This document shows, one piece after another, positions 1,174-6,966 of a stretch of 6,966 nucleotides of DNA. The translations under genes and the position numbers were made by a program. Below the pieces are notes generated by a model that was given only the letters and a program-made list of their open reading frames with translations, made no database searches and was not told where the DNA came from. Origin of the DNA: a virus (Duplodnaviria > Heunggongvirae > Uroviricota > Caudoviricetes); IMG/VR virus record IMGVR_UViG_2534682338_000001, positions 1 through 6,966 of that record; one strand, written 5' to 3'. Each line of letters starts with the position of its first letter. Position 1 is the first letter of the stretch.

Positions 1174-1696
1174 TTCGCGCCTGCTGCCGACCGGCTCATC
1201 ACCGCTTGAAGTCGCTGCCGCGAAAGCCTGTGCGGAAATTGAAAAAACGCCGGTCAGTATTCGTGAGCTGTGGAACCCGGACACCTGCTCGGCAAATCTG
1301 CTGCCGTGGCTGGCGTGGGCGTTTTCGGTCGACAGGTGGGATGAAAAGTGGCCGGAAGCGACAAAACGCGCCGTTATCCGCGATGCCTATTTCATCCACT
1401 GTCATAAGGGCACGATAGGTGCAATCCGACGTGTGGTGGAGCCGCTCGGCTATCTCATCAACGTGACGGAGTGGTGGGAAAACAGTGACCCGCCCGGCAC
1501 CTTCCGGCTCGATATTGGTGTACTGGAAAGCGGTATCACAGAGGCAATGTATCAGGAAATGGAACGGCTGATTGCTGATGCCAAACCTGCAAGCCGTCAC
1601 CTTATTGGTCTGAACATTACCCGGGACATTCCCGGCTACCTGTTCGCCGGTGGTGTGGCTTACGACGGCGATGTAATTACGGTTTACCCCGGATAA
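1166..1696 (+). CDS. I: Baseplate/tail protein I (P2 gpI family)
   Basis: 176-aa ORF matching the length I recall for P2 gpI; start overlaps the J stop; followed 10 nt later by H with a GAGG Shine-Dalgarno at about 1697-1700. Confidence 0.88.
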   Translation: MSDSRLLPTGSSPLEVAAAKACAEIEKTPVSIRELWNPDTCSANLLPWLAWAFSVDRWDEKWPEATKRAVIRDAYFIHCHKGTIGAIRRVVEPLGYLINVTEWWENSDPPGTFRLDIGVLESGITEAMYQEMERLIADAKPASRHLIGLNITRDIPGYLFAGGVAYDGDVITVYPG

Positions 1697-1706
1697 GTGA
1701 GGAATA

Positions 1707-3893
1707 ATGAGCACAAAATTTAAAACCGTTATCACCACTGCCGGTGCAGCAAAGCTGGCAGCGGCAACCGCACCGGGAGGGCGGAAGGTCAACATTACCA
1801 CGATGGCCGTCGGGGATGGCGGTGGTAAATTGCCTGTCCCGGATGCCGGGCAGACCGGGCTTATCCACGAAGTCTGGCGACATGCGCTGAACAAAATCAG
1901 TCAGGACAAACGAAACAGTAATTATATTATCGCAGAGCTGGTTATTCCGCCGGAGGTGGGCGGTTTCTGGATGCGTGAGCTTGGCCTGTACGATGATGCG
2001 GGAACGCTAATTGCCGTGGCAAACATGGCCGAAAGTTATAAACCAGCTCTTGCCGAAGGCTCAGGGCGTTCGCAGACCTGTCGCATGGTCATCATCGTCA
2101 GCAGTGTGGCCTCAGTGGAGCTGACCATTGACACCACAACGGTGATGGCGACGCAGGATTACGTTGATGACAAAATTGCAGAGCACGAACAGTCACGACG
2201 TCACCCGGACGCTTCGCTGACCGCAAAAGGTTTTACTCAGTTAAGCAGTGCGACCAACAGCACGTCTGAAACACTGGCCGCAACGCCGAAAGCGGTAAAG
2301 GCCGCGTATGACCTTGCTAACGGGAAATATACCGCACAGGACGCCACCACAGCGCGAAAAGGCCTTGTTCAGCTGAGTAGCGCCATCAACAGCGATTCTG
2401 AAACGCTTGCGGCAACGCCAAAGGCGGTTAAGACAGCGTATGACCTTGCTAACAGGAAATACACTGCACAGGATGCCACCACAGCGCGAAAAGGTCTTGT
2501 CCAGCTAAGTAGCGCCACCAACAGTGATTCTGAAACGCTGGCCGCAACATCAAAAGCGGTGAAGTCTGCCTATGACAATGCTGAAAAACGTCTTCAGAAA
2601 GATCAGAATGGTGCGGATATTCCGGGAAAGGATACCTTCACGAAAAATATCGGTGCCTGTCGTGCTTATAGCGGCGCTTTGAGCACTGAAGCCGGAAACT
2701 GGACAACCGCTCAGTTTATTGAATGGCTGGATTCCCGTGGTGCATTTAATCATCCGTACTGGATGTGCAAAGGCTCCTGGTCATATGCAAATAACAAAAT
2801 CATTACGGATACCGGATGTGGTGATATCCACCTGGCTGGTTGTGTCGTCGAGGTCATGGGAACTAAATCTGCAATCACTATCCGAGTGACCACACCGACA
2901 ACATCAAGCGGTGGCGGTACAACCAGCGCACAATTCACTTACATTAATCATGGGGACGGCTACTCCCCCGGCTGGCGTCGTGACTGGAATCGTCAGGGCG
3001 ACGCAATGACCGGAACGATTAATCAGGACGGTGGAAGCCAGAATGCCTATATGTCTACGGCCTTATGTTCAGGCACAAGAGGCGGCAAAAAATATCTCAG
3101 AAAGTTTCGTGGTGGAGAAGGAGACACTATCTGGCATGAAACAGTACAGGGCGGGGTAGTTCGTTGGGCGACTGGTAATACTGATGCTCAGGAAGAATTA
3201 TCACTCAGCTCCGCTTATGGTCTCCGTTCAAGAGGTGAGATTACATCACTCAGTGCTAATGGTCTGCGCATTGCTTATGGCAATTATGGTTTCTTTATCA
3301 GGAATGATGGCAGCAGCACTTATTTTATGTTGACTAAATCAGGTGACAGATTAGGAACTTATAATAATTTAAGACCGCTGATTATAAATGATGCCACTGG
3401 TGCTGTATCAATGGGGCATGGCCTGAATGTTACTGGTGATATTGTCTCAAGTACCAAAGTACGTGCCGGTAGCGGGAAAAAATTCACGGTCAGCAGCAGT
3501 AATACATCCACGAAGGAAGCCGCATTCAATTTGTGGGGAAACTCAAGTCGTCCGGTGGTGGCTGAATTAGGTGATGATGCAGGCTGGCATTTTTACAGTC
3601 AGAGAAATACAGATAACAGCATCACTTTTGCTGTTAACGGGCAGGTATCACCATCTAACTATGGCAACTTTGATTCACGCTATGTCCGGGATATCCGGCT
3701 TGGTGGTGCTGCCACATACAAACCTGCGAACAATGGCATGACATGGACACATCAGGCACCGTCCGGGTGTGTATATTCCGGCATTATTGTTCAGGATACC
3801 GGCTCAAACTCTGCCGATAACATTGGTGGCATATATTACAGACCGGTGCAGAAATACATTAACGGGACATGGTATAACGTAGCGCAGGTATAA
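1707..3893 (+). CDS. H: Tail fibre protein H (P2 gpH family): conserved high-GC N-terminal baseplate-attachment part, internal tandem repeats, divergent low-GC C-terminal receptor-binding part
   Basis: 728-aa ORF with N-terminus MSTKFKTVITTAGAAKLAAATAPGGRKVNITTMAVGDGGGKLPVPDAG.. typical of P2-like gpH; SD GAGG upstream; the SETLAATPKAVKxAYD motif recurs as in many tail fibres; sample-line GC drops from about 68% (line 1741) to about 40% (lines 3301, 3361). Confidence 0.9.
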   Translation: MSTKFKTVITTAGAAKLAAATAPGGRKVNITTMAVGDGGGKLPVPDAGQTGLIHEVWRHALNKISQDKRNSNYIIAELVIPPEVGGFWMRELGLYDDAGTLIAVANMAESYKPALAEGSGRSQTCRMVIIVSSVASVELTIDTTTVMATQDYVDDKIAEHEQSRRHPDASLTAKGFTQLSSATNSTSETLAATPKAVKAAYDLANGKYTAQDATTARKGLVQLSSAINSDSETLAATPKAVKTAYDLANRKYTAQDATTARKGLVQLSSATNSDSETLAATSKAVKSAYDNAEKRLQKDQNGADIPGKDTFTKNIGACRAYSGALSTEAGNWTTAQFIEWLDSRGAFNHPYWMCKGSWSYANNKIITDTGCGDIHLAGCVVEVMGTKSAITIRVTTPTTSSGGGTTSAQFTYINHGDGYSPGWRRDWNRQGDAMTGTINQDGGSQNAYMSTALCSGTRGGKKYLRKFRGGEGDTIWHETVQGGVVRWATGNTDAQEELSLSSAYGLRSRGEITSLSANGLRIAYGNYGFFIRNDGSSTYFMLTKSGDRLGTYNNLRPLIINDATGAVSMGHGLNVTGDIVSSTKVRAGSGKKFTVSSSNTSTKEAAFNLWGNSSRPVVAELGDDAGWHFYSQRNTDNSITFAVNGQVSPSNYGNFDSRYVRDIRLGGAATYKPANNGMTWTHQAPSGCVYSGIIVQDTGSNSADNIGGIYYRPVQKYINGTWYNVAQV
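2220..2580 (+). repeat. About 2.6 copies of a diverged 132-bp (44-codon) in-frame tandem repeat inside H
   Basis: Unit starts (CAG Gln codons) at 2238, 2370 and 2502, exactly 132 nt apart. Encoded units: QLSSATNSTSETLAATPKAVKAAYDLANGKYTAQDATTARKGLV / QLSSAINSDSETLAATPKAVKTAYDLANRKYTAQDATTARKGLV / QLSSATNSDSETLAATSKAVKSAYDNAEKR.. (third partial). Nucleotide identity between units is roughly 80-85% by eye. Confidence 0.8.
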
Positions 3894-3896
3894 TTT

Positions 3897-4424
3897 ATGC
3901 AGCATTTGATAAATATAATGGCGGGTAATCCAAAAACAGTTGAACAATATCAATTGACAAAGGGCTTTGATGTTGTCTGGTTTTTTACAGAAGATGGTAA
4001 GAACTGGTACGAAGAACAAAAGTATTTTGCTGATGACACGATAAAAATAGCGTACGACAAAGATAATATCATCCGCTATGTGGAAAAGGATGTGACAGCT
4101 ATCAGACCGGATGGATTAAGTGTGGTTGAAGTGGCGGATATTACTGCTAACCGACGGGCGGATATTTCAGGGGGCTGGATGTTTAAGGACGGCAAAGTGA
4201 TTAAACGCATTTATACGGCGGAGGAATTACAGCAGCAGGCAGAAATTCGGAAAGCCAGACTTCTTGCAGATGCTGAATCCGTGATTTTGCCGCTGGAGCG
4301 CGCGGTCAGACTGAACATGGCAACAGAGGAGGAGCGCACACGGCTGGAGGCTTGGGAACGCTACAGCGTTCTGGTCAGTCGTGTGGATCCTGCAAATCCT
4401 GAATGGCCGGAAATGCCGCAATAA
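3897..4424 (+). CDS. G: Tail fibre assembly chaperone G (P2 gpG / Tfa family)
   Basis: 175-aa ORF starting 3 nt after the H stop, matching the P2 gpG length; C-terminus ..[43 protein letters not shown] is recognisable as gpG. The N-terminal third is low GC (about 32% on line 3901) and the C-terminal part high GC (about 57% on line 4261), suggesting mosaic exchange together with the H distal domain. Confidence 0.88.
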
Positions 4425-4485
4425 GTTGTATGAACTCTGGTGTGAGCTTACACATCTATGGCACAGAGTAAAGCCTAATCTGACA

Positions 4486-4513
4486 GTCCGCTCTGTGCCA
4501 GAAGCGGACTTTA
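4486..4513 (+). terminator. Candidate weak intrinsic terminator downstream of G
   Basis: 6-bp stem GTCCGC (4486-4491) / GCGGAC (4504-4509) with a 12-nt loop, followed by TTT. It overlaps a second inverted repeat, GGCACAGAG (4460-4468) / CTCTGTGCC (4491-4499). The T-tract is short, so terminator function is uncertain. Confidence 0.3.
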
Positions 4514-4551
4514 GCAGAGTAGAGATTATCAATAGTGCAAAAAATAACTGG

Positions 4552-4590
4552 TTGAAACATTTGTACGTAAATGTTAGTTGTATTTAGATA
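4552..4590 (+). promoter_or_regulatory. Candidate sigma70-type promoter for the cargo gene
   Basis: TTGAAA at 4552-4557 is a good -35 hexamer, followed by AT-rich sequence with only poor -10 candidates (for example TAGATA at about 4585-4590). Position is about 40-80 nt upstream of the cargo start. Not verified. Confidence 0.25.
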
Positions 4591-4618
4591 AGGTCGTAGG
4601 ATATTTTATTCACATAAA

Positions 4619-5101
4619 ATGGAGTTTAATATGGAAGACTCTTGTAAGAAAAAAATAATGGTTGTTGTTGGAGCTGGCGCTTCGGTTGAATTAGGTATGC
4701 CAAGTGTCAGTGAGATAGATAAGCTGTTTTCGTTATGGGCGAAAGATGGTTACACTTTAGCTAGTGATAAAGATAAAAGTTTGTATTGCTACATTAAGGA
4801 GGAGGTTAATCGTCATTATGGATTGAATCCAAAAAAAGAATTAAGAAAAGAAACTAATTTTGAAGAGTTATTATATGTAATCCTTAATTTATCAGCAGCC
4901 TTGGGGGATAATAACTACAATTTTCCAATGAATGCATTCTGGGGAATAAGGGAACTTCCAAAAATAATTGGAGTTAATGGTGAGAAGTCGGTTGATGGAA
5001 ATGATTTAAGGCACCTTTACTCAAGGTTGAATGATAAACTAATTGGGGAATTTAGAGAGCGTTGTAAAATCGTTAAGGAGGAAAAAAAGAGGAGTTTTTA
5101 G
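4619..5101 (+). CDS. SIR2-like NAD-binding protein, N-terminal fragment (Rossmann GAGAS..GMP motif) of a frame-disrupted single gene; likely true start is the ATG at 4631
   Basis: Translation ..KKKIMVVVGAGASVELGMPSVSEIDKLF.. carries the hydrophobic-GAGxS-x3-GxP signature of the sirtuin/DHS-like NAD-binding fold. GGAG at 4621-4624 sits 6 nt before the ATG at 4631, while the ATG at 4619 has no SD. GC is about 28-38% on sample lines. The ORF ends at TAG 5099-5101 immediately after an A7 tract (5082-5088), while the SIR2 domain continues in frame +1. Confidence 0.7.
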   Translation: MEFNMEDSCKKKIMVVVGAGASVELGMPSVSEIDKLFSLWAKDGYTLASDKDKSLYCYIKEEVNRHYGLNPKKELRKETNFEELLYVILNLSAALGDNNYNFPMNAFWGIRELPKIIGVNGEKSVDGNDLRHLYSRLNDKLIGEFRERCKIVKEEKKRSF

Positions 5102-5886
5102 TTTTTGAAAAATTTATTAACCAACTTAATAATGACTATGACGTTGCTTTTATTACATTAAATTATGACAATCTTATAACTCAAGCTTGTCCAACTCTTT
5201 TTACTGGCTTTAGCAAAAGTACTGGCTTATTTGAAGAGGCAAGTGTTTATGCACAGTCTAAGTGGGGTTTAATTTATCATCTGCATGGTTCAGTTCACTT
5301 TGATATGCAAGGAACCCACTCAGATATGCATGCTGTCAAATGGAATAATGACTTACACTCTGAATTCAATCAGAATGCTTTTGGTAGAAACTCACAAAAT
5401 ACCTCTGAAGGTATAAGCATACCAACCTCGGCAATTGTCGCTGGTTACGCCAAAACCAGTCAGATTCAGCGGGTACCATTCCGTACTTATTACTCGAAGA
5501 TAGATGAGATTGCTTATAAAGCAGATGCTTATTTGTTTTTAGGGTATGGGTTCAATGATCCTCATCTAAATAACTCCCTGCATTCAATAAGAGATGGTAA
5601 ACATAATAAACCAGTCGTTATTATAGACTGGGCATCAGACACCCAAGACCCGATGCGGTTTAGACACGATGAGTGGTCTATAAATCTATGTAAGACTGTT
5701 CGTTCTAATGCTAATGAAATGGCAACGAGAAATTATAAGCACTCGGCTCCAGAAATAAGTAAATTAAAATCCACAGGAGCATTTGAAGTATCTTGCAATC
5801 CAGATTACCCATTATCAATTTGGTATGGTGGTTTTATACAAGCCTGCTCAAATTTTGATAAAATAAAATATGAATTAGGCATGTAA
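5077..5886 (+). CDS. SIR2-like protein, C-terminal part (catalytic Asn and His motifs plus GYGFND motif), reading frame open from 5077; same gene as 4619-5101, separated by a frameshift
   Basis: The frame of ORF 5305-5886 is open back to 5077 (stop TAA at 5074-5076) and reads GGKKEEFLVFEKFINQLNNDYDVAFITLNYDNLITQACPTLFTGFSKSTGLFEEASVYAQSKWGLIYHLHGSVHFDMQGTH.. The Asn codon in TLNYD is at 5161-5163 and the His codon in HLHG at 5284-5286, 41 residues apart, matching the roughly 38-40 residue Asn-to-His spacing I recall for defence SIR2 domains (ThsA, DSR2). ..AYLFLGYGFNDPHL.. at about 5540-5565 resembles the distal SIR2-like motif. There is no ATG between 5077 and 5305, so this segment cannot be translated alone. 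Confidence 0.7.
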   Translation, partial: GGKKEEFLVFEKFINQLNNDYDVAFITLNYDNLITQACPTLFTGFSKSTGLFEEASVYAQSKWGLIYHLHGSVHFDMQGTHSDMHAVKWNNDLHSEFNQNAFGRNSQNTSEGISIPTSAIVAGYAKTSQIQRVPFRTYYSKIDEIAYKADAYLFLGYGFNDPHLNNSLHSIRDGKHNKPVVIIDWASDTQDPMRFRHDEWSINLCKTVRSNANEMATRNYKHSAPEISKLKSTGAFEVSCNPDYPLSIWYGGFIQACSNFDKIKYELGM

Positions 5887-5940
5887 GCAATAAATTAGTT
5901 TATGTTAGTTAAGAGTAGCCTGGGGATGTCTGGCCTAGTC

Positions 5941-5968
5941 AAAAGCGGATTTTGTCATGTCCGCTTTT
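5941..5968. terminator. Perfect 9-bp inverted repeat hairpin (AAAAGCGGA / TCCGCTTTT, 10-nt loop); possible weak bidirectional terminator after the cargo gene
   Basis: AAAAGCGGA at 5941-5949 pairs perfectly with TCCGCTTTT at 5960-5968. The A/T-run symmetry would give a U-tract on either strand; the GC core is only 4 bp, so strength is doubtful. Confidence 0.35.
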
Positions 5969-6051
5969 CGCTCAAAGCAGACTGTCAGAATTGATAGCGT
6001 TTGGGCTATGTAAATTGTCAGTCGGAAAATGAGTGAGTACAAATCAGGACA

Positions 6052-6078
6052 GGCGGGCGAATTGCCCGCCTTTTCTTT
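6052..6078 (+). terminator. Rho-independent terminator separating the cargo unit from the sheath promoter
   Basis: GGCGGGC (6052-6058), loop GAATT, GCCCGCC (6064-6070), followed by TTTTCTTT (6071-6078): a GC-rich 7-bp stem plus T-tract. Confidence 0.7.
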
Positions 6079-6174: not shown

Positions 6175-6852
6175 ATGAGTGACTATCATCACGGCGTGCA
6201 GGTGCTGGAGATTAACGACGGCACCCGCGTCATGTCCACCGTATCCACCGCCATTGTCGGCATGGTCTGCACGGCCAGCGATGCGGATGCGGAAACCTTC
6301 CCCCTCAATAAACCGGTGCTGATTACCAATGTGCAGAGCGCAATTGCAAATGCCGGTAAAAAAGGCACGCTGGCGGCATCGTTGCAGGCCATCGCCGACC
6401 AGTCAAAACCGGTCACCGTTGTCGTGCGTGTGGAAGACGGCACCGGCGACGACGAGGAAACGAAACTCGCGCAGACCGTTTCCAATATCATCGGCACCAC
6501 TGACGAAAACGGTCAGTACACCGGACTGAAAGCCCTGCTGGCGGCGGAGTCGGTAACCGGTGTTAAACCGCGTATTCTTGGTGTGCCGGGGCTGGATACC
6601 AAAGAGGTGGCTGTTGCACTGGCATCAGTCTGTCAGAAGCTGCGCGCTTTCGGGTATATCAGCGCATGGGGCTGTAAAACCATTTCCGAGGTGAAAGCCT
6701 ACCGCCAGAATTTCAGCCAGCGTGAGCTGATGGTCATCTGGCCGGATTTCCTCGCATGGGATACAGTCAACAGTACCACCGCCACCGCGTATGCCACCGC
6801 CCGTGCGCTGGGTCTGCGTGCCAAAAATCGACCAGGAGCAGGGCTGGCATAA
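6175..6852 (+). CDS. FI: Tail sheath protein FI (P2 gpFI family), 5' portion; the frame is broken from about 6824 and sheath-like coding continues in shifted frames to the window end
   Basis: N-terminus MSDYHHGVQVLEINDGTRVMSTVSTAIVGMVCTASDADAETFPLNKPVLITNVQ.. is recognisable as P2-type sheath. The ORF stops at TAA 6850-6852 after 225 aa, whereas this family is about 390-400 aa. The last 66 nt (6901-6966) are back in the original frame and read ASVFWDLQESGTDADLLNESGV. Confidence 0.85.
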   Translation: MSDYHHGVQVLEINDGTRVMSTVSTAIVGMVCTASDADAETFPLNKPVLITNVQSAIANAGKKGTLAASLQAIADQSKPVTVVVRVEDGTGDDEETKLAQTVSNIIGTTDENGQYTGLKALLAAESVTGVKPRILGVPGLDTKEVAVALASVCQKLRAFGYISAWGCKTISEVKAYRQNFSQRELMVIWPDFLAWDTVNSTTATAYATARALGLRAKNRPGAGLA

Positions 6853-6966
6853 AAACGCTGTCCAAACGTCGGGGTAAAACGGTGTTAACCGGCATCAAGC
6901 GCGTCCGTATTCTGGGATTTGCAGGAGTCCGGTACCGATGCTGACCTGCTTAACGAGTCTGGCGTC

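Follow-up and report, generated by a model that had tools for sequence, protein, structure and literature searches.

Our analysis of a 6,966-nt stretch of P2-like prophage DNA (hereafter the window) shows that a SIR2-like gene is divided there between two reading frames by a one-base difference in a run of A residues, and we put at roughly 95% the probability that this frameshift is a base-calling or consensus error, an A8 tract having been under-called as A7 in the draft assembly GCA_000190855.1 of Escherichia coli H120. The window comes from an error-prone record and the same strain, when resequenced, carries A8; the frameshift is therefore best read as a sequencing error. By dropping one A from the tract, the draft assembly would have created the apparent split, and the real locus would be one uninterrupted gene of 1257 nt encoding a stand-alone SIR2_2-domain protein of 418 aa. 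Homopolymer sequencing error was the first explanation listed in the original prediction, and it is the one favoured both by the resequenced strain and by the documented abundance of frameshifts in the assembly. Since the resequenced strain has an intact gene, it follows that nothing biological is happening at the site of the split. The artefact is of a type already flagged in the literature for the H120 assembly. The apparent pseudogenes of the window (the split defence gene and a truncated tail-sheath gene) should not be taken as biology, because this draft assembly has already been reported to contain many false frameshifts.

One gene in two reading frames

The N-terminal open reading frame of the split gene occupies positions 4619-5101 of the plus strand and ends at a TAG codon (5099-5101). 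An ATG at 4619 is an alternative start, the homologues in RefSeq beginning at the second ATG, at 4631; counted from there, the 5' part of the gene (4631-5101) encodes residues 1-152 and then an out-of-frame tail of 4 residues (RSF*), and includes the GAGAS NAD-binding motif (4670-4684). The 3' part lies in the -1 frame, which is open from 5077, immediately after a TAA at 5074-5076, to the stop codon at 5884-5886 (3' part 5077-5886, plus strand). The two frames overlap by 25 nt (5077-5101, GGAGGAAAAAAAGAGGAGTTTTTAG), with the A7 run at 5082-5088 and a T5 run at 5095-5099, and the upstream frame crosses the overlap to its stop as AAG GAG GAA AAA AAG AGG AGT TTT TAG. Adding one A to the A7 run fuses both frames into a 418-aa protein identical to WP_069907393.1. 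The original prediction had proposed exactly this, a single SIR2-like gene that a 1-nt shift within the A run breaks and A8 restores, and all of its coordinates proved correct on checking. It had also placed the catalytic Asn/His segment (5102-5304) outside both open reading frames, and TLNYD (5155-5169) and HLHGS (5278-5292) indeed sit in that segment, ahead of the earliest start codon in frame (ATG 5305). Its statement that the segment contains no ATG holds for in-frame starts but not overall, as ATGs occur at 5132, 5138, 5165, 5249 and 5285, every one of them out of frame. No in-frame ATG, GTG or TTG was found within 5102-5304.

The split is not a chance pattern of open reading frames, since residues 6-342 of the repaired protein, and with them the junction at residue ~152, are covered by the alignment to a single PADLOC SIR2 model. 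Homologues of the repaired protein numbered 253 in a search of 5.8 billion protein clusters, and the 120 homologues among the matches listed are all single proteins covering ~78-100% of the query (nearly all 96-100%), nearly all ~405-445 aa in length and typically about 415 aa. On this ground we reject a native two-gene architecture; the original prediction had named two separate genes in other genomes as evidence against its reading, and all homologues examined were single proteins. Thirty aligned homologues (41-76% identity) are continuous through the junction, and the GxGAS, NYD and HGS motifs are invariant among them (residues G14/G16/A17/S18, N178-Y179-D180 and H219-G220-S221). The AF2 model of the repaired protein is one compact domain (pLDDT 88.9, pTM 0.89) in which two long core helices lie on either side of the junction. 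The intact protein is present on 129 contigs, indexed in 246 blocks, and the 160-, 156- and 193-aa products expected from the A7 allele are absent from a collection of 15 billion proteins, an absence that weighs less for NCBI records, where pseudogenes are given no protein. The scaffold from which the window derives, GL871841.1, carries no gene call over the SIR2 region.

The H120 assembly, its resequencing and the pattern of indels

The window is 100% identical to positions 1827-8792 of scaffold GL871841.1 (L010) of E. coli H120 (GCA_000190855.1), where it forms one contig flanked by runs of 145 and 752 N. The H120 assembly GCF_000190855.1 has been described as riddled with frameshift errors, and the strain was resequenced with Illumina to give a corrected record, GCA_902876715 (Rousset et al. 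2020, bioRxiv 10.1101/2020.05.25.114553). The corresponding contig in GCA_902876715.1, CADILR010000002.1 (L011), has 6967 nt and the same ends as the window, from which it differs solely by A8; its gene at 4631-5887 encodes the intact 418-aa protein. In both H120 records the tract length is that of the assembled sequence rather than of raw reads.

Across the gene, two complete E. coli chromosomes match the window at every base apart from an A8 run where the window has A7, and both annotate the 418-aa product as a "SIR2 family protein" (WP_069907393.1); the seven further E. coli loci encoding the intact protein all have A8 as well. The comparison with homologous loci that had been proposed as a check on the original prediction thus gave A8 in all nine of the other E. 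coli loci fetched (L001-L009), or in 10/10 other records when the corrected H120 contig is included, and neither A7 nor A9 was seen among these ten. Of 5426 complete E. coli genomes, just 2 have the gene, which is absent from the INPHARED phage set, and exact-pattern scans of IMG/VR viral contigs and GTDB species-representative genomes for the tract at lengths A5-A10 returned no match. At A8 the tract would be the longest homopolymer of the 7-kb window. The split is a direct instance of the homopolymer miscalls of draft assemblies (Rousset et al. 2020), with an indel in the longest A run; the window and such assemblies also share an excess of indels far above substitutions, errors near gapped contig ends, and correction by resequencing.

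The closest relative of the window (L004, GCA_043242095.1) shows 0 substitutions over the 6966 nt and exactly seven indels, each of one single A. In the SIR2 gene an A8 run is shortened to A7, which accounts for one of the seven. The remaining six bear the same error signature; each adds an A within 6823-6897 (plus strand) of the tail-sheath gene FI, all within 75 nt and 69-143 nt from the contig end (A4 to A5 twice, A2 to A3, A3 to A4, and A1 to A2 twice), and together they leave FI truncated at 225 aa. This part of FI is matched by 1704 E. coli records and 121 phage records, none of them at 99% identity or above, and in all 32 of the FI matches listed just 861 nt of the record align to the 867-nt query, the six extra bases being missing. 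The aberrant 225-aa sheath product has an exact match in only two records, GL871841.1 and CADILR010000002.1. The corrected record's fix is thus not exhaustive, as it retains all six sheath insertions. These insertions, together with the old contig ends, suggest that the corrected record was built on the old contigs rather than independently assembled, and we therefore infer a reference-based correction, which by the same reasoning may have been unable to repair a dense cluster of indels at the end of a contig.

The six FI insertions probably represent errors at the contig end that escaped correction; alternatively, the sheath gene may really be dead. Contig ends in GCA_000190855.1 are generally unreliable, because the neighbouring contig also has an insertion near its end: the next H120 contig of GL871841.1 carries one inserted nucleotide 63 nt before its 3' end (position 11771 of the scaffold). 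Comparison with L004 shows that the gap of 145 N on the left side of the window (1682-1826 of the scaffold) replaces just 14 nt of real sequence. Another public assembly, of a related prophage (L007; GCA_051218095.1, JBPKIG010000004.1, 1368-8332), has an intact SIR2 gene, while its genes I, H and FI contain between them four single-base insertions with respect to L004 and are left without gene calls; the insertions reflect either indel errors of the assembly or decay of the prophage.

Mutation, slippage and recoding at the A tract

A genuine loss of function is very unlikely, although it is the alternative that fares best. According to this explanation, one A had really been lost from the H120 lysogen used for the first sequencing, and with it the function of a potentially toxic SIR2 NADase. 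The A8 run, as the longest homopolymer of the region, is the likeliest site for replication slippage, and NADase effectors can be costly to their hosts. However, the same strain has A8 on resequencing, so that the original stock would need to have differed; the source record is documented as error-ridden; truncated products are found in no other assembly; and a single inactivating mutation is a poor fit to the pattern of 0 substitutions and seven A indels that separates the window from its nearest relative. Inactivation in the lysogen, the second of the explanations in the original prediction, accordingly finds no support in the resequenced strain.

It is more doubtful still that the A8 tract is a real but low-frequency mutational switch and that the original culture contained a substantial A7 sub-population. 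In such cells the SIR2 NADase would be turned down, not off, because a small share of ribosomes would slip -1 on the in-phase A_AAA_AAG and produce exactly the full-length protein. If this were true, the A7 state would be a leaky and reversible off-state of a costly prophage defence gene.

We consider phase variation proper even less probable. Here the A tract would be a contingency locus subject to slipped-strand mispairing, and the two H120 records would represent its two states; two records of one strain do differ only in tract length, and defence genes that phase-vary through homopolymers are known from other systems. Yet A8 is present in 10/10 other records, with no A7 or A9, and a tract of this length is short for efficient switching in mismatch-repair-proficient E. 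coli. Nor is the tract conserved: it is missing in the orthologues from Vibrio, Pectobacterium and one metagenomic relative, in which the site is a variable linker rich in Lys, Glu and Asn. On/off switching by slippage had been ranked last in the original prediction, and the uniform tract length lends it no support.

Finally, the A7 run could be real and the full-length protein be made by -1 ribosomal frameshifting on A_AAA_AAG (5083-5089) or by transcriptional slippage. The zero frame of the A7 version reads GA A_AAA_AAG AGG, with the heptamer in phase and followed by the rare codon AGG, and a -1 slip at the heptamer gives exactly the intact 418-aa protein. A_AAA_AAG is among the most efficient -1 motifs of E. 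coli when stimulators are present, whereas without them such motifs raise frameshifting only 2- to 10-fold over a background of ~0.05% (PMC4066793). The region downstream of the heptamer has no stimulatory structure (MFE -6.3 kcal/mol, z = +1.0), 173 of 200 shuffled sequences folding at least as well. The Shine-Dalgarno-like AAGGAGG ends 1 nt before the heptamer and 2 nt before the P-site codon AAA, which argues against a role in recoding. The spacing of such sequences that favours -1 shifts is 10-14 nt. The motif is not conserved in homologues, all relatives having single open reading frames, and outside the erroneous record the two-frame layout does not occur. The site therefore resembles the -1 sites of dnaX and IS911 in having an in-phase A_AAA_AAG in its A7 version, but differs from them in lacking stimulators and conservation, and the two-frame layout on which the resemblance depends is an artefact. 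With no stimulators, no conservation and, above all, A8 in the strain itself, we reject programmed frameshifting as the least credible of these alternatives; the in-phase A_AAA_AAG and AGG at 5083-5092 are a coincidence of the miscall and no signal.

The SIR2_2 protein and its cassette

Read with A8, the gene encodes a protein with a sirtuin-like fold. Pfam SIR2_2 (PF13289) matches residues 173-339 of the repaired protein with 54.3 bits against a cut-off of 24.5, the Rossmann GxGxS NAD-binding motif and the catalytic Asn and His are all present, and Foldseek retrieves the SIR2 subunit of SIR2-HerA, SIRT2, CobB, ThsA, Avs5 and DSR2. The best match among solved structures and by sequence is the SIR2 subunit of SIR2-HerA (Nezha; PDB 8uae, 8sub, 8j4u, 8w9l), which is of similar size (~380-415 aa); Foldseek gives E 4e-10 and TM ~0.55 and profile comparison E 5.7e-12, with only 13-16% identity, and the NYD and LHGS motifs align to those of PsSIR2 (8w9l). 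The protein is by inference a predicted NADase and a plausible single-gene, NAD+-depleting anti-phage effector, which may consume NAD+ in the manner of effectors that prophages carry to exclude competing phages.

The protein lacks the defining features of these SIR2 systems. A HerA-type ATPase/helicase partner next to the SIR2 gene is absent from the window and from L005, L012 and L014, and a single-gene cassette without an adjacent HerA is not a SIR2-HerA (Nezha) system. Pfam detects no SLOG domain and there is no adjacent TIR gene, as would be expected for Thoeris ThsA, whose models give just a 24-residue local match (E 1.7e-4). The NCBIfam equivalog NF042942 (SIR2_antiphage) scores 12.2 bits against a cut-off of 500. 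The DSR1 and DSR2 proteins have ~1000 aa and a C-terminal sensor region, as opposed to a single domain of 418 aa, and DSR2 appears only as a distant fold match. PHROGs yields only a weak match, to an entry of unknown function. No experimental report of the stand-alone SIR2_2 family was found in Rousset 2022, in Vassallo 2022, in a free-text literature search, or under WP_069907393. The family, made up of stand-alone proteins of ~415 aa, is widely distributed and uncharacterised, and the intact gene of the cassette would be a reasonable candidate for an anti-phage NADase.

The window covers the late-gene region of the P2-like prophage, from the 3' end of W through J, I, H (tail fibre, 1707-3893) and G (3897-4424); an AT-rich insert follows G, and the tail-sheath gene FI extends from 6175 to the end of the window. 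The insert holds the SIR2 gene as a single-gene cassette of 1.5 kb (4475-5974, plus strand, 35.5% GC), and a terminator-like GC-rich hairpin followed by a T run (6051-6071, plus strand) lies downstream of it, upstream of FI. Another E. coli (L005) carries this cassette within a non-P2 island, where its neighbours are AlpA, DUF932, antirestriction and Ag43 genes. A 31-nt imperfect inverted repeat (84% complementary; left arm 4479-4509, right arm 5959-5989) flanks the cassette, coincides with the limits of nucleotide identity to the L005 copy (4475-5974), and may be a signature of the mobility of the cassette.

The position of the cassette in the late operon is that of the P2 Z/fun defence hotspot. 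Z/fun is a variable region of P2 between the tail genes G and FI (Odegrip et al. 2006; Vassallo et al. 2022, PMC9519451). Vassallo et al. described a second defence-enriched locus of P2-like phages there, with three new systems besides fun. The SIR2_2 gene is not among the systems validated in that study, in which the only SIR2 system, PD-T7-2, is a two-gene SIR2 and ATPase system, unlike the single-gene cassette (PMC9519451).

A 44%-identical homologue (P0092) lies in a defence island (L015 1-10760; ENA ERZ27245821 k141_63270), where its neighbours are a TIR-TPR protein, a DUF4238 protein and, as a separate unit with its own SIR2 of 544 aa, a complete SIR2-HerA pair; this setting supports a defence role for the stand-alone SIR2_2 family. 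In Vibrio parahaemolyticus (L012/L013; CP196793.1, CP196802.1), a 73%-identical homologue (P0004) is part of a long array of small same-strand genes (e.g., acetyltransferase, NUDIX, HEPN_RiboL-PSP, and DUFs) that resembles the cassette array of a chromosomal integron. Upstream of the cassette, the tail-fibre gene H contains, at 2200-2560 of the window, three tandem copies of a segment of ~40 residues (…TAQDATTARKGLVQLSSA.NS.SETLAAT.KAVK.AYD…), which are ordinary phage-fibre repeats.
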